A stretch of 64,000 bases of DNA from an uncultured Anaerolineaceae bacterium (GTDB taxonomy: Bacteria > Chloroflexota > Anaerolineae > Aggregatilineales > Aggregatilineaceae), in assembly GCA_964472565.1 (NCBI GenBank), contig CAYYNB010000010.1, positions 253 through 64,252 of the forward strand, given 5' to 3'. Within the stretch, counting starts at the first letter, position 1. Every line of letters begins with the position of its first letter. The position numbers and the translations under genes were made by a program. Under the pieces are notes generated by a model. That model saw only the letters and a program-made list of their open reading frames with translations, was not told where the DNA came from and searched no databases. Below, one piece after another: positions 1-29,412 of the stretch.

Positions 1-721
1 ACGTCCAGATCAAACAGGCAACATAGTTGTTTAAAATCAAATAGGGCAGAATGAGGAATATCACCGTAAAAACATAGGCTATGCCGGTATAAATGGCTGA
101 TTTGAGCGGGTTTTGTTTGGTTTGTTCACCCTGCGAAGCCTGCGTCGAGAGATATTCCGAAGCGGCCATTGATAAAGAAGCTGAAATGCCGGTAATAAAG
201 CCCGCCAATGCGATCACCTGTGTATCTTGGAAGGCAAAAGTCAGGCCTGCCAGTGCGCCCGTTAGCTCAACCAGAGCATCATTCAGTCCCAGCACGACAG
301 AGCCAATATATTTCAGACTCTCCTCATCGATCATATCGATGAGTTCGGTTTCGTGTTGTTCTTCTTCTTTGAGAACGCCTTCAATTTCTGGAAGGGATTG
401 GAGAATGCTGGCGTAACTCTTCTGTCCGGCCTCTTCTCCTTTTTCCATCAATTTGATTGCAAAAGTCAGACCAAACAGCTTGGCAATCCAAAAGTAAAGC
501 CGCACCTTGAACTGATCGGGCTGAACATCGGTTTGAGTGTAATTTTTCCAGATCAGATAGTGTTGGTATTCTTGCTCAGCAATTTGATGCAGGGTTTCCT
601 TGTTATGACTATCCGTTACCATTTCCGCCAGCTTATGATACATGTGATAGCTGGCTATCTCGGCTTTTTGCATGACCAGAAGCTGCCCACGCAGCTCAGG
701 TTTGATCGTTTGGACATCCAT
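1..721 (-). CDS. VIT1/CCC1-family metal transporter with N-terminal ferritin/rubrerythrin-like domain (3' end runs off the window)
   Basis: My own minus-strand translation from the ATG at 721-719 gives MDVQTIKPELRGQLLVMQKAEIASYHMYHKLAEM...EEEQHETELIDMIDEE. This is followed by Gly/Ala-rich TM segments (GSVVLGLNDALVELTGALAGL, ASLSMAASEYLS, IAYVFTVIFLILPYLIL). The frame is open to position 1, so the gene is missing from the ORF track. Confidence 0.7.
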   Translation of the reverse strand, partial: MDVQTIKPELRGQLLVMQKAEIASYHMYHKLAEMVTDSHNKETLHQIAEQEYQHYLIWKNYTQTDVQPDQFKVRLYFWIAKLFGLTFAIKLMEKGEEAGQKSYASILQSLPEIEGVLKEEEQHETELIDMIDEESLKYIGSVVLGLNDALVELTGALAGLTFAFQDTQVIALAGFITGISASLSMAASEYLSTQASQGEQTKQNPLKSAIYTGIAYVFTVIFLILPYLILNNYVACLIWT

Positions 722-754
722 CGTGTGTTTTCTCCATTAGGCGTGTAGCTAAAA

Positions 755-1681
755 TTATGATTCGGCAGCAAGCGGGCGTAAGTCAGCATTTTCAGGCGCA
801 AATACAAAATCCCAGAATGCGGCTCGTGCTTCTTGTGCGCGAAAATCGGTATTACGCGCCATATAGAGTTTTTGTACCAATTGCAGCCCTTCAACCGGAA
901 TACTCACCGCGAGTTCTTCATGTAAAACATGCCGTGTGGCAATCTGTGAGACAAATGCTGGCCCAACCCCTTCACACACTGCCTGTATAATTGCCTCTGT
1001 ATTTTCCAAAACCAACCTTGTCTGAAGCATCTCGACATTGAGATCGTACTTGGAAAGCTCGCGGTTTAGGGTGATCGATGTTCCTGAACTTGATTCGCGC
1101 AAAACAATAGGATATTCAACCAGATTTTCCGGCAGCAAACGGTCTGCTTGTGCCCAGGCATGGCCCTTCGGAACTATCAGCACAAGCTCATCATCGGCGA
1201 AGTGCTGGTACTCAATATGGTGTCGTGGAACCCGTAAACTGCTGATCGCCAGATCAACTTCCCCTGCGGTCAGGCTTTCCAATGCCTGGTCGCGTGGTCC
1301 AACCCGGCAGACCGTCCGCACATTAGGATAACAGGTCATGAAGCGCGCCATGATTTTAGGCAGAATATATTTGCCTGCTGCCGTGCTGCACCCTATTGTG
1401 AGCGTCCCCCATAACTCGCCGCGCTGCGAGCTAATCATTTCCTCCAGACAGGTCGCATCGCGCAGCAGCTTGCGCACACCGGGAACCGCCGCCTCACCAA
1501 TATCACTCAGACGAATACTGCGTCCTACCCGGTCAAATAATAGAATTCCAAGCTTTTCTTCCAATGTTTGAATATGGGCACTCACCGCCGATTGGGACAA
1601 ATTCAAGATACGCGCGGTTTCCGAAAAGTTCTCAGTTTCAGCCGCGATCAGAAAAATTTGTAGTTCATAAAGTTCAAGCAT
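755..1681 (-). CDS. LysR-family transcriptional regulator
   Basis: 308 aa. N-terminal wHTH FSETARILNLSQSAVSAHIQTLEEKLG plus a LysR-type substrate-binding body. Divergent from the cytochrome gene. Confidence 0.9.
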   Translation of the reverse strand: MLELYELQIFLIAAETENFSETARILNLSQSAVSAHIQTLEEKLGILLFDRVGRSIRLSDIGEAAVPGVRKLLRDATCLEEMISSQRGELWGTLTIGCSTAAGKYILPKIMARFMTCYPNVRTVCRVGPRDQALESLTAGEVDLAISSLRVPRHHIEYQHFADDELVLIVPKGHAWAQADRLLPENLVEYPIVLRESSSGTSITLNRELSKYDLNVEMLQTRLVLENTEAIIQAVCEGVGPAFVSQIATRHVLHEELAVSIPVEGLQLVQKLYMARNTDFRAQEARAAFWDFVFAPENADLRPLAAES

Positions 1682-1865
1682 CGTTCCAACCTTTGGTCAG
1701 CGACCATGTAAGCTGTGGTAATTATGAATCCTTCTTAGCAGATTTTGGAAGGGCGAGATACAGCCAAATATCACAAGAAAAACGGATAAATGCCAGTGCC
1801 TCTTATCAGTTAATCAGTTTACACTGTGCTATAGGAATGCGTTTTACGCACGACTCGGAGTGCAA

Positions 1866-3539
1866 ATGAAAAAATTTAACAGTAGCGGGCTGCTTGCTCT
1901 CATCGGAGGGTTGGCCACAGGTGTGGTAGTCCTGGCGGGTTGTGGACCAGATAAAACAGCCCCGGAATTTGCCCAGGTTATCCAGCCAACGACGGTAGCT
2001 CTCGAACCTACACTGGCGGCCACAATTTCTCCCAATCCGGTTATAGATACTGAATGTTTGGCTTGCCATCAGGATCAGGATCGCCTAAAAGAACTGGCAG
2101 TTGAAGACGTCCAGGCAGAAACTTTATCCGAAGGGCCTGGCTGAGGCGGCTCTGTGCCTCCGTTGGAGGCTTGGGAGAAAGTCTGGATTAACGGCGAAAC
2201 ATTTGCCAGCGATGTACATTCATATATCAACTGCACAACTTGTCACTTGGGACAATCAGTGGACGATATGGAACTGGCTCATCAGGGCTTAGTCACAGAT
2301 CCATCTGAAAACCCGGAACAGGTCTGTGCCAGTTGTCATCCAGATGTAGCACCGCATTCTGTAAATAGTTTGCATACAACGCTTGCGGGATACGATACGG
2401 TCCTCCATCAACGTAGTTCGCCCGAACATTATGAAACATTAGAACTGATGGAGTCGTATCACTGCGACTCATGTCATGCCTCCTGCGGTCAGTGTCATGT
2501 CAGCCAGCCCACATCGGTTGGCGGCGGGTTGTTAGAAGGCCATACCTTTGTTCAAACCCCGCCGATGAGCCGGACCTGTACAGGATGTCACGGCAGCCGT
2601 GTCAAAAATGAGTATTATGGTCTAAACGAAGGTTTTCCTGGCGATGTCCATCTCCGCGAAGCGCGTATGGCCTGTACGGACTGTCATACTGGAGCGGAAA
2701 TGCATGGCGGCACCGATTCGTTGGAGACCGTCGATGTATTGGTCAGTGACGGACAGGATACACCCGCTTCGAAGCCTATGACACACCGTTATGATGCGCC
2801 CCGTGAACCCACCTGTGAGTCATGCCACACGGAGCAAATCGGTGTTGGATCCGGCATACCAGAACATGAAGTCCACCCGGTAGAACTTTTGGCTTGCGAA
2901 GTTTGCCACAGCGTGAGCTACACCCACTGCACAAACTGCCATGTAGAACGAACAGAGGATGATGTTGCCTTCTACAGTATCGAGTCCCATAGTCTTGGAT
3001 TCTACATTGGCCTCAACTCGCGCACATCCGATCGCCCTTACAAATATGTCCCGGTACGTCACGTACCAGTTGACATCAATTCCTTTAGTTTCTATGGCGA
3101 AGGCTTGCTGGCGAATTTTCTGAACCGCGCCACCTGGGCGTATGCCACACCGCATAATACCCAGTTGGATACACCCCAAACCCAGACATGTTTAGCCTGT
3201 CACGAAAATGACGCCATCTTTCTGACCCCGGATAAAGTGGACCCTGCTGAATTGGACGGCGCAAATCTGGAAGTTATAGTCGAACATGCACCGGCTTTCC
3301 CCGAAGGATATGAACAATATCTGGAAGCGCAGGAAGCCGAAGCTCAGCCATCCGAGTCTGGTGAAGAAGAAACTGCGCCATCCGGCGATAGTGATGCGGA
3401 TTTCTGGGGCAGCGACAGCAGCCCAATACCTACCGAGTCCAGCAGTGATGCCGATTTTTGGGGTGAGGACAGTAGTCCTGCACCTACAGAAGCCAGTAGC
3501 GATGCCGATTTCTGGGGCAGCGACAGCACCCCTGAATAG
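1866..3539 (+). CDS. Multihaem (11 x CxxCH) c-type cytochrome lipoprotein, interrupted by an in-frame TGA at 2142-2144 (Sec/recoding candidate or pseudogene)
   Basis: GGAG lies 5 nt before the ATG at 1866. Signal peptide with lipobox LAGC. One CxxCH lies before the TGA and ten after it (CTTCH, CASCH, CDSCH, CGQCH, CTGCH, CTDCH, CESCH, CEVCH, CTNCH, CLACH). Both ORF-track pieces are in the same frame. Confidence 0.7.
2152..2174 (+). promoter_or_regulatory. Hairpin 3' of the in-frame UGA (SECIS-like candidate)
   Basis: GCCUCC-GUU-GGAGGC (2156-2170) is a perfect 6-bp stem, extendable with G-U pairs to C2152-G2174. It starts 12 nt after the UGA and has a G/U loop. Confidence 0.3.
3386..3536 (+). 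repeat. Coding tandem repeat at the cytochrome C-terminus (3 x SDADFWG-x-DS-x-P-x-PTE)
   Basis: GDSDADFWGSDSSPIPTESS / SDADFWGEDSSPAPTEAS / SDADFWGSDSTPE. The nucleotide units gatgc(g/c)gatttctggggc recur. Confidence 0.85.
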
Positions 3540-3573
3540 ATTTGAGACAAGAAGATATGGAGGCCCAGGTTAT

Positions 3574-5229
3574 ATGCGAAAACTAATTTCTTTCCTGTTT
3601 GTACTGGCACTCATTGTGCCGCTTGCACTCCCCTTTGCGCCTGTTCTGGCTCAAGATGGAACAGCCGTTGTTGCACGTCTTGAGGAGTATAATGCTAATC
3701 TGCCCAGCGGATACGGTAATGTGTCAATTACCGATCTTTCCGCTGAACTGGTGGATAACCCGGACATTCTGCTGCTTGATGTGCGCCAGCCCGAAGAATA
3801 TGCTGAGGGTCACATTGCCGGGGCATTCAACATCCCCATCCGCGATGTCGTTAAGAACCTCAATCTGCTGCCCGATCTAGACGCCAAAATTGTGGCGATA
3901 TGTGGGTCAGCATTCCGCTCTTCAATTGGCATGACCGCGCTCCAAATCTTGGGGTACACGGACGTTCGTAGCATGTCCGGCGGTATGAGTGCCTGGAAGG
4001 AAGAGGGTCTGGCTACCGTCACTGATGCGTTCACGCCCGAAGCCAGTACGGCTCCTGAAATTGATTCTGAAGTATTAGCGGCAGTCGATGCGGCGTTGTC
4101 AGGGTTGCCTGAAGGCTTTGGCGGCGTCAAAGCGGAAGATCTAAATGCCGAAATGGCGGACAATCCTCCGGCTCAGTTGATCGATGTGCGCACGCCTGAC
4201 GAATGGGCCACTGGTTACATCGCGGGTGCGGTTCACATGCCCCTCGAATCTTTTATGAGCTATGCTGGGGAACTGCCGACAGACAAAGCGGCTAATCTGG
4301 TTGTGTATTGCAAGGGTGGACATCGTGGCAATATGGTTGCCACAATGCTGCGCACGTTGGGGTATACCAATGTGCGGAATATATCAGGTGGTATTGGCGG
4401 CTGGACAACAGCCGGATTGGCAATTGAAGGCGCGGCCCCTGCTGAACCGGCTGCCGAACTCGATCTCGTCACACTGCTGGATAGCTATATTACGGGTCTG
4501 CCCAACACCTTTAACGCGGTCAAAGCCAGTGATCTGGCCGTCGAATTAGCTGAAACCCCCGATCTGCTGCTCGTCGATGTTCGCACCGTAGACGAATATG
4601 TGGAAGGACATATCGAAGGCGCGATCAACATCCCGCTGACCGAAATTACCGATCATCTGGATATGCTTCCAGCACTCGATCAACCAATGGTGATCTACTG
4701 TGGTAGCGGGCACCGTTCTGTGATGGCAATGGCTGTATTCAATCTGTTGGGTTATGTCAACGCCCGTAGTATGTTGGGCGGCGTGAAAGCCTGGACCTCC
4801 GCAGAACTACCTTTGACGACAGATGAAATTACGTATGAAGCTGGAACCGCTCCTGCTATTGACCCGGCGTTGTTCGCGGCCTTAGATGCCTATGTGAAGG
4901 CGATCCCGGCAGGTTATTATGCCATCAGCGCCGACGATCTCAATGTGGCCCTGGTTGAAACGCCACCCGCGCTCATTGATGTTCGCACTGATGAAGAAGT
5001 TGCCAATGGGATTATCGAGGGCGCACAGCATATTGAACTGCGTAGTTTTGTAGCCCAGATGAGTGCATGGCCCGCGGACAAAGCCGCTCCCATTGTGATC
5101 TACTGCGGCAGTGATCACCGTGCCGTAATCGCAATGGTGGCTATGCAGTTGATGGGCTACCAGGATGTACGCACACTTGGCGGCGGACTTCAAGCCTGGT
5201 TAGCCAAAGAATATCCTGTTGTACAGTAA
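3574..5229 (+). CDS. Secreted protein with four tandem rhodanese (sulfurtransferase) domains
   Basis: Start moved to ATG 3574 (GGAGG at 3559). Signal peptide MRKLISFLFVLALIVPLALPFAPVLAQ. Four DVR-x-x-x-EY/W modules, each with an active-site loop: CGSAFRS, CKGGHRG, CGSGHRS, CGSDHRA. Confidence 0.85.
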   Translation: MRKLISFLFVLALIVPLALPFAPVLAQDGTAVVARLEEYNANLPSGYGNVSITDLSAELVDNPDILLLDVRQPEEYAEGHIAGAFNIPIRDVVKNLNLLPDLDAKIVAICGSAFRSSIGMTALQILGYTDVRSMSGGMSAWKEEGLATVTDAFTPEASTAPEIDSEVLAAVDAALSGLPEGFGGVKAEDLNAEMADNPPAQLIDVRTPDEWATGYIAGAVHMPLESFMSYAGELPTDKAANLVVYCKGGHRGNMVATMLRTLGYTNVRNISGGIGGWTTAGLAIEGAAPAEPAAELDLVTLLDSYITGLPNTFNAVKASDLAVELAETPDLLLVDVRTVDEYVEGHIEGAINIPLTEITDHLDMLPALDQPMVIYCGSGHRSVMAMAVFNLLGYVNARSMLGGVKAWTSAELPLTTDEITYEAGTAPAIDPALFAALDAYVKAIPAGYYAISADDLNVALVETPPALIDVRTDEEVANGIIEGAQHIELRSFVAQMSAWPADKAAPIVIYCGSDHRAVIAMVAMQLMGYQDVRTLGGGLQAWLAKEYPVVQ

Positions 5230-19773: not shown

Positions 19774-22572
19774 ATGTCAGTCAATACCACTGACAAATGG
19801 TACGCCTTATCAGTTGACGAAGTTGCGCGCCAGATCGAAACCGATCTGGTCAATGGACTTGATGATCCACAGGTTCAACAACGTCAGGCTAAATATGGCA
19901 AAAATGAACTCCCCAGCGAGGCTGGGCTTTCGATCTGGAAACTGTTGTTAAGCCAGTTTACCAGTGTAATGGTTATCGTTCTGGTTGCAGCCGCCATCAT
20001 TTCTGCATTCATCGGCGATACCAAAGACTCGGTTGTGATCATGGCGATTGTGGTTTTGAACGCCGCGTTGGGCTTCTTTCAGGAATATCAGGCGGAACAA
20101 GCGTTGGCGGCGTTGGGAGCCATGCAAACACCTCAGGTTCGGGTTCGCCGCAACCATCACGTGCAGGAACTGAGCGCGCTTGAACTCGTGCCGGGTGACA
20201 TTGTGCTGATGGAAGCCGGCGATCGGGTGCCTGCCGATGGCCGTTTGGCCGAGGCGGTTAATCTGCAAATTGAAGAGGCGGCACTGACCGGCGAATCAGT
20301 CCCGGTTCAAAAGACAAGTGAAGCCCAACCCGATTCAGATCCGCCCCCCGCGCTGGCTGACCGGCGTAACATCGCCTATATGGGGACGGCTGTCACCTAT
20401 GGCCGCGCCGAAATGATCGTCACATCAACCGGGGCCGCTACCCAACTCGGAAATATCGCCGCGCTGCTTCAGCGGGTGGAAGAAGGCCGCACACCGCTGC
20501 AAGAACGGCTGTCCAAAATGGGCATGTGGTTAGCTGGAGCCGCGTTGATTGTTTGTGCGCTGGTCTTTTTGACCGGCGTTATCCGCGGTGAAGACGCTCG
20601 CGAAATGTTCCTGACGGCGATTAGCCTCGCGGTTGCGGCTATCCCCGAAGGTCTGCCGGCGGTGATCACTATCGCTCTGGCACTCGGCGCACGCCGTATG
20701 ATCAAACGCCGGGCACTGATTCGTAAACTTCCGGCAGTCGAAACCTTAGGTTCTGTTTCGGTGATCTGTTCCGACAAGACCGGTACCTTGACCCGGAACG
20801 AGATGACTGTAACCGAGCTTGCCTTGCCCGGACGTGACGATGTACGGCTGACGGGGGTTGGTTATGAACCGGTAGGCGACTTCTTTGAAGGCGATAAACA
20901 AATCAACCCGGTTAACGATGATGTGCTGGCACGCATTCTCCAAGCGGCAGCGCTCAACACCGACGCCTATCTTGAAAAACCGGGCGAAGATGTGGGTTGG
21001 ACGGTGGTAGGTGATACGACAGAAGGCGCGCTTTTGGTACTTGCCCGCAAAGCCGGGTGGGGCCGTGATGTGCTTGAAGAAGACCTGCCGCGCGTGGCTG
21101 AGCTTCCTTTCAGTTCCGAACGAAAAGCGATGTCTACCATTCACCAACCCAAAGGTAGCTTTGCCGCGCATTTGTTTGAAGAAGCGCCTTATGTCTCCTT
21201 TACCAAAGGGGCACCGGATCAGTTAGTTAACTGGGCTTCTCAGGAGACAATGCCCTCTGGTCCCGCATCACTCACCCCGGAGCGGCGGGAAACATGGCAG
21301 AAACAGATCGAAAAAATGGCAAGCGAGGGCCTGCGTGTTATCGGGCTGGGATACCGGGCGCTGACTTCTATTCCCGATCCACTTGAACCCGAAACCTTAG
21401 AGCGTGGGCTGACTCTGTTGGGGCTGATTGGCATCGTAGATCCGCCGCGTGCCGAAGCCAAACGAGCGGTTGAAGTCGCTCACCATGCCGGTATTCGCAC
21501 GGTGATGATCACTGGCGATCACAAGCTCACCGCCGAAGCGATTGCCCGCCAACTGGGGATCATGAAATCGAATGACAAAGCCTTCACCGGGGTTGAACTG
21601 GACACCCTGACCGAAGAACAACTCAATCAAGTGGTTACAACCACCAGTGTCTATGCGCGTGTTTCCCCTGAACACAAGCTGCGGATTGTCAAAGCTCTCC
21701 AATCACACGGTCAGATCGTCGCGATGACAGGTGACGGGGTGAATGATGCACCCGCCCTGAAACAGGCCAACATTGGCGTGGCGATGGGCATTACAGGCAC
21801 CGATGTCAGCCAGGGCGCGGCGGATATGGTTCTGACCGATGATAACTTTGCCAGTATCGTCGCCGCCGTCGAAGAAGGCCGCACGATCTACGATAATATT
21901 CGTAAGTTCGTTGGCTATCTGCTCAGCGCGAATTCGGGCGAAATCAGCACCATGTTTGTTGCCCTGTTGATTGGCCTCAAAGCTCCTTTGCTTGCAATCC
22001 AGATTTTGTGGGTGAACCTCGTGACCGACGGCTTACCCGCCATTGCGCTCGGTTTTGAGCCGGGTGAAGCGGATGTCATGGACCGCAAACCGCGTCCCCC
22101 GCGCGAGAGTATTTTTGCGCACGGTGTGGGTTGGCGGGTGCTGTGGGTTGGCGCTTGGCTTGGAGCCAGTACCATTCTCGGCTTTATCTGGGCACTGAAC
22201 CGCAATGGGGGAGAGCTGCTCGACCCATCGGATCATGCGCTGGAAATTGCGCGCACGGTGGCTTTTGGCATTCTGGCGCTGTCCCAACTCTTTGTGGTCA
22301 CAGCGTTACACTCCGGCGATACCTCATTCTTCCGTGCCCCACTGCATAAAAATAAGCTGCTGTGGGTAGCCGTCGTGTTCACCATGCTGTTACAGATGGT
22401 TGCTATTTACGTCCCCGGTTTCCAGCATCTGCTGAATACCGTATCTCTGGATGGTGCAGAATTGGCGATAACATGGCTGCTATCAGCATCGGTCTTCCCG
22501 GCGCTGGAGGTTGAAAAGATTATTCGCCGCTACCTGGAACGTAAAAACAACGGACTAACCGAAGCCTCCTGA
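19774..22572 (+). CDS. P-type ATPase, type II (Ca2+/cation-transporting)
   Basis: Start moved to ATG 19774. Motifs [30 protein letters not shown], and 10 TM helices. Confidence 0.9.
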
Positions 22573-22580
22573 TCGACGAA

Positions 22581-22611
22581 AAATCCCCTTTCCACACGAG
22601 AGGGGATTTTT
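22581..22611 (+). terminator. Rho-independent terminator of the ATPase gene
   Basis: AAATCCCCT-11 nt-AGGGGATTT followed by a T-run. Confidence 0.8.
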
Positions 22612-22694
22612 GTATCTTTTGCCCATTATTTCGGGTTGATCCTGTGTTATACTTTCTCTAATTCTGCGAAATTTTACTATCTTGAGGCAGTTTG

Positions 22695-22781
22695 ATGTTT
22701 GGGGTCTTCATGGGTACCACAATGACCATGACTACCACCGGTATGATGACCGGGCGGTCAAATGCCGGTTGCTTCAGGTAG
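22695..22781 (+). CDS. Candidate 28-codon Thr/Met-rich leader peptide
   Basis: ATG TTT GGG GTC TTC ATG GGT ACC ACA ATG ACC ATG ACT ACC ACC GGT ATG ATG ACC GGG CGG ... TAG gives MFGVFMGTTMTMTTTGMMTGRSNAGCFR. GAGG lies 7 nt upstream. Too short for the ORF track. Confidence 0.55.
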   Translation: MFGVFMGTTMTMTTTGMMTGRSNAGCFR

Positions 22782-22812
22782 GTAGGGGCACAGAACATCA
22801 CCTCAGAAACCT

Positions 22813-22846
22813 AAAACGTGGAGCAAACCGGCCCCACGTTTTTTTA
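22813..22846 (+). terminator. Attenuator terminator between leader peptide and aspartate kinase
   Basis: AAAACGUGG-12 nt-CCACGUUUU followed by a run of 7 T (22839-22845). It lies 29 nt before the lysC ATG. Confidence 0.6.
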
Positions 22847-22874
22847 TTTGTGTTAGGGACCTAAGGAGACAGGC

Positions 22875-24293
22875 ATGGCACTCATTACCATGAAGTTTGG
22901 CGGCACCTCAGTTGGCAGCGCCGAGGCGATTGCCCAGGTCGCACGGATTGTTGAACAAAGTTACCAACAGGGTCATCAGGTGCTCGTAGTCTGCTCGGCG
23001 ATGAGCAAAGTGACCGATATGTTGATCCAGGGCGCACGTACTGCAATGTCCGGCGATTCATCTTCTTATGTTACACTATCAAATAAGCTGCGCGAGAAGC
23101 ACGAGAACGCTATCCAGACATTGATCCCCTCGGAAGTCGAACAGATTGTGCTGCGCGATGAAGTGATGGGCCTGATCGATGAGTTTAAGACCCTGTGTTA
23201 TGGTATTTACGTGTTGCGCGAAGCGTCCCCCAAAGCTATGGACAAAGTAAGTTCGTTGGGTGAGCGCATGTCGATGCCCATTGTCTCCGCCGCAATTCGC
23301 CAGCTTGGTATTCCCAGCGTTACTGTGAGTGCCAGTTCGCTTATCATGACGGATGACCAGTACCAGAATGCAGGCGTGCTGTTTCCTGAAACCGAGACCC
23401 AGATTCAAACGCGACTGCTGCCGGTCCTTCAGCAGGGAATCGTGCCCGTTGTGACCGGCTTTATCGGCGCAACCCGTGAGGGGGTTATTACCACGTTGGG
23501 ACGCGGCGGTAGTGATTACAGCGCTGCACTGCTAGGAGCCTATGTCAACAGTGATGAGGTTTGGATCTGGACCGATGTGGACGGGGTAATGACCGCTGAT
23601 CCGCGTATTGTGCCCGAAGCTCGTGTGATTCCGGTGCTGTCTTACTATGAAGTCGGTGAAATGGCATACTATGGCGCAAAGGTGCTGCATGCCAAGACGG
23701 TGTTGCCGTGTGTCGAACGTGACATTCCGGTGTGGGTCAAAAATACGTTTAACCCGTCCTTTCCCGGTACTTTGATCACCCGTCGCGACGAGAATACCCC
23801 TGGCACCATTAAGGCAGTTACGGCGATTCGCGATGTAAGCCTCATTACGGTTGCTGGTCGCGGCATGATTGGCGTTCCGGGTATTGCGGCCCGTACTTTT
23901 TCGGCGGTCGCCAAACAGGGCGCGAACGTGTTGATGATCGCGCAGTCTTCCAGCGAGCAAAGTATCTGTTTTGTCGTGCCGCAAGACAAAAGCCGTGAAG
24001 TCGCGCTGGCTATTGAAGCTGAGCTTGCAACTGAGTTTGGCCGTCAGGATATTGAGCACGCCTCAATCAATGATGATGTTGAAATTCTTGCTGTCGTCGG
24101 TGCCGGGATGCGGTTGCAGTCCGGTGTAGCGGCACGTGTCTTTGGCGCGTTGGGCGACCAGAATGTAAATATTTTCGCCATCGCCCAGGGAGCCAGTGAT
24201 TACTGCTTTTCCGTGGTCGTCGATTCATCCTCGACCCAGACCGCGATTTGTGCGATTCACAAGTTAGTTCAGGTGAATGGCTACACCCATTAA
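22875..24293 (+). CDS. lysC: Aspartate kinase (monofunctional, two C-terminal ACT domains)
   Basis: AAGGAG RBS. MKFGGTSVGS; GRGGSDYSA; ACT repeats at the C-terminus. Confidence 0.95.
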   Translation: MALITMKFGGTSVGSAEAIAQVARIVEQSYQQGHQVLVVCSAMSKVTDMLIQGARTAMSGDSSSYVTLSNKLREKHENAIQTLIPSEVEQIVLRDEVMGLIDEFKTLCYGIYVLREASPKAMDKVSSLGERMSMPIVSAAIRQLGIPSVTVSASSLIMTDDQYQNAGVLFPETETQIQTRLLPVLQQGIVPVVTGFIGATREGVITTLGRGGSDYSAALLGAYVNSDEVWIWTDVDGVMTADPRIVPEARVIPVLSYYEVGEMAYYGAKVLHAKTVLPCVERDIPVWVKNTFNPSFPGTLITRRDENTPGTIKAVTAIRDVSLITVAGRGMIGVPGIAARTFSAVAKQGANVLMIAQSSSEQSICFVVPQDKSREVALAIEAELATEFGRQDIEHASINDDVEILAVVGAGMRLQSGVAARVFGALGDQNVNIFAIAQGASDYCFSVVVDSSSTQTAICAIHKLVQVNGYTH

Positions 24294-24480
24294 AAGGGGC
24301 GGGAAACCGCCCCAAAAAATTCGAGTATCGTCATCCCACCATTCGTATGATACACTATGCCGTCTTACACGGAACTGTTACCACGCACCGCGCATCCCGC
24401 GCCCTTCCGCTTGCCGTTCTTCAGAGATAACCTCGCGTGTGTCGGTTATCCTTCTTAGCCGAATTGATGACAAATAAGCT

Positions 24481-25876: not shown

Positions 25877-26863
25877 GTGGCTGACGAAATTTCTTCCTAC
25901 AATCCATCTGGTTTAATTCCATCATCGCCCCCGCCGCTTGATTACCATCCGGTAGCTGTCTATCTGGCGAGTCTGGCTCCAGGCTCGCGCCGCACGATGC
26001 GTCAGGCGTTAGATACCATTGCCGCCATTCTCACCAACGGCCAACAGGATGCGCTGTCATTAAATTGGGGCGCTTTGCGTTATCAGCATACCGCCGCCGT
26101 TCGCTCTCGTTTAGCGGAACAGTTCAAACCCTCAACGGCGAACAAAATGCTGTCGGCCCTGCGCCAGGTGCTCCATCATGCCTGGAAGCTGGGCTTGATG
26201 TCGGCGGAAGATTATCAGCGTGCGCGCGATATAGGCGCGGTCAAAGGCAATACATTACCCGCCGGGCGCAGTTTGGATGCGGGTGAGATCGCGGCCCTGG
26301 TGATGACCTGCGAATCTGATCCCACACCGGCAGGTATTCGTGACGCTGCAATTATTGCGTTGATGTATGCGACAGGCATTCGCCGTGCATCCGTGATCAA
26401 ATTGGATCTGGATGATTATGATCCATCAGCCAAAACGCTGCGTGTGCGTGGGGCTAAGGGTCAAAAAGAATATTTAGCCCACATTCCCCAGAGCGGCGCA
26501 TTCCGCGCCCTTGAAGATTGGATCGCCATTCGCGGCGATAATTCCGGACCGTTGTTCTGGCCGATCACCAAAATGGGAAAGTTGGTCAACCGGCGGATGA
26601 GCACACAGGCCGTTTATAATCTGCTTGCCAAGCGGGCCAATGAAGCCGGAGTCGATCACTTTTCGCCGCACGATCTGCGCCGTACCCTGGCTGGTGATCT
26701 GTTGGATGCGGGGGCAGACATTGTGACCGTCCAGAAAATGTTAGCCCATGCGAATGTACAAACCACCGCCCGTTATGATCGCCGCCCCGAAGAAACCAAA
26801 CGCAAAGCCGCCAGCCTGATTCACATCCCCTATCGCGGGCGCAAAAAAAGCCCTAAATCATAA
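25877..26863 (+). CDS. Tyrosine site-specific recombinase/integrase
   Basis: 328 aa with a GTG start. Motifs ATGIRRASVIKLDLDD (Arg I), HDLRRT (box II His-x-x-Arg), LAHANVQTTARYDRR (catalytic Tyr). Confidence 0.9.
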   Translation: MADEISSYNPSGLIPSSPPPLDYHPVAVYLASLAPGSRRTMRQALDTIAAILTNGQQDALSLNWGALRYQHTAAVRSRLAEQFKPSTANKMLSALRQVLHHAWKLGLMSAEDYQRARDIGAVKGNTLPAGRSLDAGEIAALVMTCESDPTPAGIRDAAIIALMYATGIRRASVIKLDLDDYDPSAKTLRVRGAKGQKEYLAHIPQSGAFRALEDWIAIRGDNSGPLFWPITKMGKLVNRRMSTQAVYNLLAKRANEAGVDHFSPHDLRRTLAGDLLDAGADIVTVQKMLAHANVQTTARYDRRPEETKRKAASLIHIPYRGRKKSPKS

Positions 26864-26924
26864 TCGCTTGCTTGCCACACTTAAACTATCCGCGTACGAT
26901 AGAAGGATTATCGGCTAACTGTGT

Positions 26925-27608
26925 GGATACTTATCGAGGCTTTCTACTGTATTCTCTTGCGCTGTTGTGGGTCTGAATGGTGAAATTATTCAAGTGGAGG
27001 TGGACTTTAACCCGCATGGTATGCCCTCCTTCACGGTGGTGGGGCTGCCGGATACGGCGGTACAGGAAAGCCACGAACGTGTCCGATCCGCCATTCGCAA
27101 CAGTGGCTTACAGTTTCCCAACAAGCATTACACCGTAAATTTAGCGCCAGCCAGTCTGCGCAAAGCCGGCCCTGCCTATGACCTGCCAATTGCGATTGGT
27201 GTGTTAGCCTCGACCGATCAGGTTCCCTTACACAGGCTCACCGGGGCCTTGTTCGTCGGCGAACTCTCCCTTGATGGCAGCGTCCGCCATATCAGCGGTG
27301 TGCTTCCGGTAGCTCATCGGGCGTGGCAGGAAGGCTTCGAATGCATTTATGTTCCCGAAGAAGATGTATCTCAGGCGGCGCTTGTTCCTGACATTGATGT
27401 CATTCCCGTTCATTCCCTCGGCCAGTTGGTCGAACATCTCTATGATCTTCAGCCCATCCCGCCCTATGTGCGCCAGAACATCGATCTGAGCGTTCCTGAC
27501 GACCTGGATGGTTTGACCGACTTCGCCGATGTAAAAGGGCAAAGGTATCTGAAACGCGCTCTTTGTGAAGTTGCTGAAGATTGGATCACATATCATTTTG
27601 ACTGTTGA
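26925..27608 (+). pseudogene. comM: comM/yifB 5' fragment (residues ~5-204), start codon lost
   Basis: LSTVFSCAVVGLNGEIIQVEVDFNPHG...DFADVKGQ is collinear with residues 5-204 of the intact copy. Homology ends after GGG CAA (27537-27542), followed by a 22-codon tail and stop. The positions of both ATGs of the intact copy are mutated. Confidence 0.85.
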
Positions 27609-27870
27609 CTCACTTGGCGATGATAATCACCGATGGCTCGTGCATTTTAAGGTTGGACTACCCATCCACCTCACTAATTCTCACATGATACAGACGAACT
27701 ATGGATTGTGTACTTCGCCGCGATTGGTGTCTAGATAAGTCGGCCAAGAGGCTGAAACCGCCAACGAGGACATGCATAATTATTTTGAGGAGTTGACTTT
27801 CCCGCACCTAGCATTTGAGCTAGGATATATTTGTTGATAGTACCTTTATTGTTGCTATCCCAAGGCGGAT

Positions 27871-29412
27871 ATGCTCATGCTTTCGACTGTTTATTCATGC
27901 GCGATTGTAGGACTAGAAGGTGAAATTGTTCAGGTAGAAGTTGATTTTAATCCCCATGGGATGCCCGCGTTTACAGTTGTTGGTTTGCCTGATGCGGCAG
28001 TTCAAGAGAGTCGCGAGCGTGTTCGGTCGGCTATTCGCAATAGCGGTTTGAATTTTCCCAATAAACGATATACCGCGAATCTTGCCCCAGCGAATCTGCG
28101 TAAAGAGGGCCCAGCCTACGATTTACCATTAGCAATGGGCGTCTTGGCCTCAACTGATCAGGTGCCATTGCATCGTTTAAACGGCGCGGTATTTGTGGGC
28201 GAACTTTCACTGGATGGTACGGTGCGGCATATTGGCGGTATCCTGCCGATTGCGTATTGTGCATGGCAAGAAGGGTACGAGTGTATCTATGTGCCTGAAG
28301 AGGATGCTCCACAGGCAGCACTTGTGCCAGAAATCGACGTAATCCCCGTGCGTTCGCTGGGGCATTTGGTCGAACACCTTTACGATCTGCAGGTTATTGC
28401 CCCCTATGTGCGTGGCGAGATGAACCTAAGAGTACCCGGTGATTTGGGAGGGTTAACGAATTTCTCTGATATTAAAGGTCAACAACATGTTAAGCGTGCG
28501 CTCGAAGTTGCTGCGGCTGGTTCGCACAATGTGCTTATGATTGGACCGCCTGGCGTTGGGAAAACATTGCTCGCGCGGGCGTTGCCTGGTATTCTGCCGA
28601 CGATGTCACTCGACGAAGCGCTTGAAGTAACGCGCATCTATTCAGTGGCAGATTTGCTACCGCCCGATAATCCCCTGGTGCAGATTCGTCCATTCCGTGC
28701 ACCTCACCATACGATCAGTGATGCCGGCTTGGTCGGTGGTGGTTCGTTGCCTCGGCCCGGCGAAGTCTCGCTTTCACACCGTGGAGTTCTTTTTCTCGAT
28801 GAAATGCCCGAATTTGGCACCCATGCTTTGGAAGTACTACGCCAGCCGATTGAAGACAAGCATGTCACTATCAGCCGCGCACGCGTCTCTCTTTCGTTCC
28901 CGGCAAATTTCATGCTGGTTGCGGCAATGAATCCCTGTCCTTGTGGATTTCACGGCGATCCTGTTAAGGAATGTACGTGCTCGCCAGCGCAGGTACGGCG
29001 TTACCAACAGCGTCTATCAGGTCCGTTGCTGGATCGGATTGATATTCATATTGACGTGCCGCGGGTGGATTATGACAAGCTTACCGATGACCGGCGAGGT
29101 GAAAGTTCTTCAGCAATTCGTGAGCGTGTCGAAGCGGCGCGTGATCGACAGCGCGTTCGTTTTCGGGATGAAGCGCGGCTGCAAGCGAATGCCGATATGG
29201 GGCCTGGCGAAATCCGGCGCTATTGTAAGCCATCCAACGAGGGACAGCAGTTGCTGAACACTACGCTGCGCCAGATGCAGTTGAGCGCGCGTGCCTATCA
29301 CCGGATTCTCAAGTTGAGCCGGACGATTGCCGATCTTGCGGCGAATGACACAATTGAGATCGAACACCTTGCCGAGGCGATTCAATACCGCCCGCGCAAA
29401 GTGATTTATTAG
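27871..29412 (+). CDS. comM: ComM/YifB-family Mg-chelatase-like AAA+ ATPase (intact copy)
   Basis: 513 aa. N-terminal Lon-like domain, Walker A GPPGVGKT, LFLDE, a CPCG zinc-like motif, and a C-terminal ChlI-like helix bundle. Confidence 0.9.
   Translation: MLMLSTVYSCAIVGLEGEIVQVEVDFNPHGMPAFTVVGLPDAAVQESRERVRSAIRNSGLNFPNKRYTANLAPANLRKEGPAYDLPLAMGVLASTDQVPLHRLNGAVFVGELSLDGTVRHIGGILPIAYCAWQEGYECIYVPEEDAPQAALVPEIDVIPVRSLGHLVEHLYDLQVIAPYVRGEMNLRVPGDLGGLTNFSDIKGQQHVKRALEVAAAGSHNVLMIGPPGVGKTLLARALPGILPTMSLDEALEVTRIYSVADLLPPDNPLVQIRPFRAPHHTISDAGLVGGGSLPRPGEVSLSHRGVLFLDEMPEFGTHALEVLRQPIEDKHVTISRARVSLSFPANFMLVAAMNPCPCGFHGDPVKECTCSPAQVRRYQQRLSGPLLDRIDIHIDVPRVDYDKLTDDRRGESSSAIRERVEAARDRQRVRFRDEARLQANADMGPGEIRRYCKPSNEGQQLLNTTLRQMQLSARAYHRILKLSRTIADLAANDTIEIEHLAEAIQYRPRKVIY

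Follow-up and report, generated by a model that had tools for sequence, protein, structure and literature searches.

The question raised by this locus is how the aspartate kinase (AK) gene at 22875-24293 is controlled in an uncultured Anaerolineaceae bacterium, in whose contig CAYYNB010000010.1 a short open reading frame (ORF) rich in threonine (Thr) and methionine (Met) codons, followed by a terminator hairpin, stands directly upstream of the AK start codon. The stretch of 64,000 nucleotides (nt) that was analysed is referred to here as the window. The element is probably a ribosome-mediated transcription attenuator that acts on the homoserine branch and is multivalent (Thr or Met), as judged from its sequence and from modelled folding. 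The leader ORF, read directly from the sequence, extends from the ATG at 22695 to the TAG at 22779-22781 and encodes in 28 codons the product MFGVFMGTTMTMTTTGMMTGRSNAGCFR; an in-frame TTG at 22692 gives a 29-aa version, the one present in the list of the ORF tool. In codons 6-19, 12 of the 14 codons specify Thr or Met. The Shine-Dalgarno (SD) sequence is located at a 7-nt spacing from the leader ATG, and an identical GAGG with the same spacing was found in locus L005. The hairpin starts 32 nt past the leader stop, and the AK ATG at 22875 lies 29 nt past the U run. A first-pass annotation of the window, made from the letters alone, had reported the 28-codon Thr/Met ORF, the hairpin with its U7 tail and the spacings to the stop and to the AK ATG, all of which are present as described. 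The principal features are the following.

22684 to 22687, + strand: SD sequence GAGG of the leader ORF, shared with L005
22695 to 22781, + strand: leader ORF, 28 codons plus TAG, conserved in relatives
22710 to 22751, + strand: regulatory codon run, codons 6-19, with seven Thr (ACC, ACA or ACU), five Met (AUG) and two Gly codons
22813 to 22845, + strand: predicted intrinsic terminator (attenuator), found with RNAfold and paired in relatives
22863 to 22868, + strand: SD sequence AAGGAG of the AK gene, read from the sequence and lying outside the terminator hairpin
22875 to 24293, + strand: regulated gene, encoding a monofunctional AK of 472 aa (NCBIfam NF004938)

Searching one genome per species with the AK protein as query gave 14 loci from Chloroflexota, mostly labelled Anaerolineae and two of them Chloroflexia, the nearest AK relative (96% identity) coming from a metagenome-assembled genome of the Aggregatilineaceae. 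In 10 of these 14 genome loci a Thr/Met-rich mini-ORF and then a terminator were located just upstream of AK, with AK identities down to 49%, and a metagenome scan contributed 80 more loci, about 20 of them with a Thr/Met leader. When such a leader was defined as at least six Thr or Met codons in a 10-codon window inside a short ORF upstream of the orthologous AK, 32 of 95 loci were positive (AK identities 49-96%), compared with 0 of 95 when the reverse strand was tested and 7 of 1900 shuffled sequences. The conservation of the mini-ORF in related genomes, which the first-pass annotation had proposed as a check, thus holds for AK identities as low as about 49%. In the 463 kb of loci, both strands included, 22 mini-ORFs had 8 or more Thr/Met codons out of 10, and all 22 were upstream of AK or of the homoserine dehydrogenase gene (hom). 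All of 27 loci have, in the Thr/Met frame, an ATG together with a stop codon that precedes the terminator by 18-36 nt; in the remaining two frames an ATG occurs in 0 and 4 of the 27, and the stops are scattered. Each of the 31 leader-bearing loci that were examined has a strong terminator 13-36 nt past the stop of the leader, and the recurrent motif consisted of the Thr/Met mini-ORF, GCCGGYUGCUYC, GCGYGGAGCA..CCGGCCCCRCGC and then a U run. Many AK orthologues with about 48-57% identity carry no leader (L023, L024, L004, L007 and most of L061-L095, a range with AK identities of about 48-52%), L023 and L024 being hom-AK operons, so that the element is confined to part of the AK family.

The enzyme scored 530.7 bits against NCBIfam NF004938 (cut-off 528). 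Its closest solved structures are those of the AK of Methanocaldococcus jannaschii (3C1M and 2HMF, E about 1e-113), which is a threonine-sensitive enzyme; the lysine-sensitive LysC of Escherichia coli is far more distant (E 1e-52), and the name lysC used in the first-pass annotation is therefore not justified. Two relatives (L002 and L018) have hom preceding AK, and in both the homologous leader sits upstream of hom and shares the GCCGGUUGCUYC and GCGUGGAGCA...CCGGCCCCACGC motifs. In L003, a Thr/Met leader at 575-673 stands ahead of an operon of hom (772-1851), an APH-family phosphotransferase gene (1900-2922) and AK, the whole spanning 575-4407; the phosphotransferase had no NCBIfam match and is possibly a candidate, non-canonical homoserine kinase. 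Judged by the gene order of these three loci, the leader element tracks the pathway and not the AK gene alone. Homoserine, to which AK and Hom lead, is the last precursor that Thr and Met share and is not on the route to Lys, which agrees with the codon content of the leader; since AK, together with hom in the relatives, makes this common precursor, multivalent control would suit the regulated genes.

Over the 32 leaders, Thr accounted for 23.6% of the residues, internal Met for 13.4%, Ile for 3.0% and Lys for 1.0%. The alternative that survives best is that only Thr is sensed, the AUG codons serving RNA pairing or reflecting an accident of composition, and Met supply being irrelevant. The dominance of Thr over Met fits this explanation, as do the leaders with little internal Met (none in L027, one codon each in L029 and L055), the local hairpins in which the AUG and ACC repeats take part (22707-12 with 22725-30, for example) and the expectation that a shortage of Met would hamper leader initiation as well. 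It sits poorly with an internal Met content about 6-fold over the typical proteome frequency (a baseline of ~2%, from general knowledge), with the presence of internal Met in 31 of 32 leaders, usually as 3-8 codons, and with Met positions that move between leaders yet stay in frame. Moreover, Met+Thr was the best-scoring amino-acid pair (26 loci, against 17 for the second, Gly+Thr), and AK and hom serve the Thr and Met branches alike. Thr-only sensing is accordingly regarded as unlikely, and the sensing of either amino acid is preferred.

The helices that would connect the codon run with transcription were evaluated on an alignment of the 11 leaders of the window's clade. The terminator hairpin has 9 bp, formed by AAAACGUGG (22813-21) with CCACGUUUU (22834-42), with an inner G-C and C-G pair besides, and its U7 tail occupies 22839-45. 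RNAfold placed it in both the minimum free energy (MFE) and the centroid structures, and a simple terminator scan missed the hairpin (22813-42) because of its 12-nt loop. Across the 11 relatives the terminator helix is 95% paired, with two compensatory changes (G-C to A-U and U-A to C-G). The antiterminator is a 13-bp helix between two strands, B and C, with 96.4% of the cells paired in the 11 sequences and compensatory changes from C-G to G-C and from U-A to C-G, compared with 24-57% in slid controls. A third structure is predicted to hold B when it is not otherwise engaged.

22764 to 22776, + strand: antiterminator 5' strand B, GCCGGUUGCUUCA, within the last five leader codons
22819 to 22832, + strand: antiterminator 3' strand C, UGGAGCAAACCGGC, formed by the final 3 nt of the terminator 5' arm together with nearly all of the loop
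22737 to 22771, + strand: anti-antiterminator hairpin or hairpins sequestering B, predicted with RNAfold and with RNAalifold on 11 relatives, the least precisely defined part

The first-pass annotation had placed CCGGU (22765-69), ACCGG (22827-31) and GCCCC (22831-35) correctly, and the CCGGU/ACCGG pairing that it proposed is the core of the 13-bp antiterminator, conserved with compensatory changes and predicted to form when the ribosome is stalled. Its other pairing, GGGGC with GCCCC, is partly conserved; the GGGGC is at 22785-89 and not at 22786-90, no covariation was detected, and the helix crosses the main antiterminator. This pairing was dropped from the model, which does not need it. For the anti-antiterminator, the MFE form given by RNAfold joins 22737-44 with 22762-69 and 22747-51 with 22756-60, and the RNAalifold consensus of the 11 relatives consists of the terminator and a small conserved hairpin, 22751-57 with 22765-71. 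CCGG is self-complementary, and the leader ORF contains two copies derived from Thr-Gly codons (ACC-GGN) and a third from GCC-GGU; the conserved leader glycines are explained by the ACC-GGN codons, which provide CCGG pairing elements.

A further complementarity was observed between 22672-22690, comprising the leader 5' untranslated region and the SD region, and 22770-22788, comprising the 3' half of strand B and the stop-codon region (duplex of -15.9 kcal/mol, z -2.0). It is stronger in L017, L019 and L022, in which the SD region GGAGCAGC mimics the terminator segment C, and weak in other relatives. It could represent a second anti-antiterminator or a limit on re-initiation at the leader.

The window transcript was folded as if cut at 22833, before the terminator 3' arm emerges, and the mean probability of the B:C pairs was recorded for different ribosome positions. 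Without a ribosome the antiterminator had a probability of 0.14; placing the A site on any one of codons 6-19 raised it to 0.63-0.92, and a ribosome at the stop codon lowered it to 0.00, since B falls within the last five leader codons and is then covered. The cut-transcript model thereby reproduces the classical three-state logic in the window. The value for the stalled ribosome was far above that for the stop codon in 8 of the 11 clade members. In L001, L002 and L018 the ORF extends well beyond B, so that timing, and not occupancy of the stop codon, must matter there.

In full-length RNAs folded with a masked ribosome footprint, the antiterminator replaced the terminator in the window, L005, L001 and L009 and, at some positions, in L012, L006 and L010; no switch was seen in L008, L011, L013 and L014. 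A generic metric, in which the terminator 5' arm was scored as paired with anything upstream, was also tried on 28 loci; its means (0.57, 0.65 and 0.61) did not discriminate the states, and helix-specific probabilities were used instead for that reason. The 3' end of the leader ORF is complementary to the terminator 5' arm and loop (mean z -1.9, with z <= -2 in about 17 of 31), and in six loci of more distant groups (L009, L010, L011, L028, L053 and L059) the ORF-end GGGAAUUUCCGCGCGCC pairs with the terminator GAGCGUGUGGAAAUCC (z -2.5 to -4.7).

Transcription of the unit would begin between the end of the preceding gene and the leader. The upstream neighbour, a P-type Ca-ATPase gene ending at 22572, is followed by a terminator of its own, which is the 5' boundary of the AK transcription unit.

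22579 to 22611, + strand: intrinsic terminator of the P-type Ca-ATPase gene, found by the terminator scan (14 pairs plus a T run)
22635 to 22662, + strand: candidate promoter in two readings, from direct reading guided by the relatives

In the first reading, TTGATC (22635-40) and TCTAAT (22657-62) are separated by 16 nt, and the end of the promoter is 32 nt before the leader ATG; in the second, an extended -10 element, TGtTATACT, occupies 22645-53. Of 33 loci, 28 have a sigma-70-type promoter, TTGAC[AG]-17/18-TAnnnT, a short way upstream of the leader; within the window's clade its distance to the leader ATG is mostly 32-34 nt. In seven relatives (L006 at 2734-2790, L008 at about 2790-2835, L029, L055, L056, L080 and L085) the leader ATG is only 7-10 nt past the -10 hexamer of a TTGAC[ACG]-17/18-TAnnnT promoter, an arrangement from which their leader peptides would be translated from leaderless or nearly leaderless mRNA.

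Four of the parts by which leader-peptide attenuators are recognised are present at this locus, namely an ORF with a start signal, end-product codons, a terminator and an antiterminator that a ribosome is predicted to mask, and the thrL-like logic that the first-pass annotation had put forward was supported in the computational tests. From these parts we infer a promoter, actual translation of the leader ORF and a response to amino acids, in which AK transcription would be tied to how much charged tRNA-Thr and elongator tRNA-Met is available. Transcription would start about 25-35 nt upstream of the 28-codon leader ORF. With Thr and Met plentiful, the ribosome would reach the stop codon (22779) and cover B (22764-76), the terminator (22813-45) would form, and RNA polymerase would halt ahead of the AK gene. 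With Thr or Met scarce, a ribosome stalled on codons 6-19 would keep the B-sequestering hairpin open, and the freed B would pair with C (22819-32), so that no terminator would form and AK would be transcribed. If the leader were not translated, upstream CCGG-containing segments, and in part the leader SD region, would hold B and the terminator would form. The Thr and Met codons are interleaved, and a shortage of either one should therefore relieve termination.

Several results count against this mechanism. Within the window's clade, the overlap of the antiterminator with the terminator is limited to the loop and 3 nt of the 5' arm, which means that the two states would exclude each other by topology and not by full strand competition. 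The upstream partner in the anti-antiterminator differs between relatives, and the state without a ribosome is predicted to be antiterminated in 5 of the 11 clade members. In equilibrium folds of the complete RNA the terminator state is the more stable by 2-9 kcal/mol, and this holds for a ribosome stalled anywhere but at codon 19, so that the decision must be kinetic, as it is in known attenuators; full-length equilibrium folding with forced states consequently fails as an account of the switching, and truncated (co-transcriptional) folding succeeds. In about a third of the loci the automated duplex search found nothing above shuffles, and in the distant loci L006, L012, L013, L014, L029, L047, L048 and L080 it detected no complementarity between the ORF end and the terminator beyond shuffles, the pairing in L012 having been traced by eye only. 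A consensus promoter scan found no promoter at the window's leader, where the promoter candidates are weak or ambiguous. We know of no studies of transcription-translation coupling in Chloroflexota. Finally, Met starvation would lower fMet-tRNA and hence leader initiation, which would push towards termination.

Two other explanations start from the same RNA. In one, a 5' leader that binds a protein or a metabolite, in the manner of a riboswitch, controls the terminator, the ORF being incidental and untranslated. The strong sequence conservation of the B, C and terminator segments would be expected of such an RNA, and lysine riboswitches are generally known on AK genes of other phyla. However, no Rfam family matched with E up to 10, and no conserved aptamer-like fold with multiple helices was seen with RNAalifold in the 11 relatives; the region from start to stop varies in length and sequence and yet always holds a single open Thr/Met-rich frame, its ATG is always behind an SD sequence or a leaderless promoter, and the distance from stop to terminator is fixed. 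A binding leader of this kind is very unlikely.

In the other, the mini-ORF peptide or the terminated leader RNA of ~185 nt acts in trans, as a peptide or a small RNA (sRNA), in the way shown for rnTrpL and peTrpL of Sinorhizobium, and AK control is secondary. Attenuator-derived sRNAs and leader peptides that function in trans are on record (PMC6614838, PMC7298713). Within clades, conservation of the peptide is fair in its C-terminal part (G-C/N/S-F-R), but this part coincides with the antiterminator strand, so that RNA pairing explains this conservation, and outside the Thr/Met run the peptide shows no conservation between clades. The element was always found upstream of AK or hom, and a function in trans would supplement the attenuator rather than supplant it. 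As the primary role of the element, such a function is equally improbable. The last alternative, a chance ORF beside an ordinary terminator or an annotation artefact, has in its favour only a small ORF and a full-region fold z-score of -2.18, and is for practical purposes refuted by the shuffle, reverse-strand and whole-locus controls, together with AK identities of 49-96% and the covariation.

Other observations concern the surroundings of the attenuator. A 60-aa ORF rich in His, Asp and Tyr (22682-22864) overlaps the leader in another frame and reads through the terminator; it is not conserved in the relatives and was rejected as a by-product of the ACN/AUG repeats. A scan of the window for further mini-ORFs with amino-acid runs, as in other attenuators, found none. 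Three nt past the AK stop there is an all-G-C hairpin of 7 bp (24296-24313, GGGGCGG GAAA CCGCCCC), flanked by A runs on the + strand, so that it scores as a terminator only on the - strand, where no gene converges. Further downstream, a tyrosine integrase gene (25877-26863) adjoins a 213-aa fragment (26967-27608) with only the N-terminal ChlI domain, and a full-length Mg-chelatase-like gene of the ComM/YifB type (27871-29412) is located 3' of that fragment. The layout of 25877-29412 suggests that a mobile element has integrated at comM, with a 5' fragment of the gene duplicated.

The judgement is evenly balanced on whether the attenuator represents both the first recognised leader-peptide attenuator family in Chloroflexota (Anaerolineae) and the clearest natural case of Met codons sensing together with Thr codons, with the homoserine branch under the control of either amino acid. 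If so, this control would span AK, hom and possibly homoserine kinase, the leaderless members would load ribosomes from the first transcribed base, and tight transcription-translation coupling would be implied in a little-studied phylum. Such coupling is not universal in bacteria, and the element would offer indirect evidence for it in Chloroflexota. It would likewise be a natural example of Met codons as attenuation sensors, which are to our knowledge rare, perhaps since Met starvation also hits initiation. The mechanism itself is textbook, and the value of the finding lies in a supported regulatory annotation of a key branch-point enzyme in the Anaerolineae, which are abundant in sediments, digesters and soils and have few cultured members and almost no characterised gene regulation. 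The compact motif could become a covariance model for genome annotation, and gene callers would then no longer overlook the leader ORFs or enter them wrongly as hypothetical proteins.

According to a survey of 2010 (PMC2965389), leader-peptide systems had until then been recognised in Proteobacteria and Actinobacteria alone; the survey added Firmicutes to that range. A search of the full-text literature, with subscription journals outside its coverage, found no AK or hom leader peptide in Chloroflexota and no Thr/Met leader, and an exact look-up in public protein collections showed no gene call for most of the leader peptides and no name for any. A permissive Rfam search (E up to 10) over 22000-23500 and a scan of the whole window at the gathering threshold gave no match to Thr_leader (RF00506), the lysine riboswitch (RF00168) or the T-box (RF00230); the only matches in the two were to sRNAs, at chance level and on terminators, and to one tRNA-Cys. 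The element is, as far as was found, a non-homologous relative of a well-known regulatory kind, in a phylum for which no earlier description was encountered.

The first-pass annotation had not recognised a mixed Thr+Met leader as described. Vitreschak et al. in 2004 reportedly predicted Met codons beside Thr and Ile codons in the thrA leader of the Pasteurellales, reading it as control by both end products in a purely computational prediction. In view of that prediction, a Thr+Met leader is not conceptually new. The Pasteurellales leader is a gammaproteobacterial thrL homologue with Ile codons, whereas the leaders described here are of unrelated sequence, contain 3.0% Ile and belong to another phylum.

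Among the other known systems, the lysine riboswitch (L-box) upstream of lysC likewise controls AK through a terminator and an antiterminator in the 5' untranslated region, but it senses lysine with an aptamer and needs no ORF, whereas the leaders described here had no match to it and are depleted in Lys codons (1.0%). The T-box leaders of Thr and Met genes in Firmicutes also sense tRNA charging and act by antitermination; in contrast with the element in the window, which had no T-box match, they bind uncharged tRNA directly, as large, structured and untranslated RNAs. The enterobacterial ilvGMEDA and ilvBN leaders share with it the interleaved codons and the multivalent control, there by Leu, Val and Ile, and differ in amino acids, pathway and phylum, with no homology. 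The closest parallel is thrL of E. coli, where a short, Thr-dense ORF with codons for a second pathway-related amino acid precedes a terminator and a competing antiterminator, ahead of an aspartate kinase gene under multivalent attenuation. That gene, thrA, specifies the enzyme AK-I/homoserine dehydrogenase I. As second amino acid, thrL has Ile and the present leader Met, and the two leaders have no homology in sequence or structure (no RF00506 match at E up to 10); moreover, the gene controlled here is that of a monofunctional, archaeal or M. jannaschii-type AK, or in relatives a hom-AK operon, in Chloroflexota, with leaders some of which would be leaderless.

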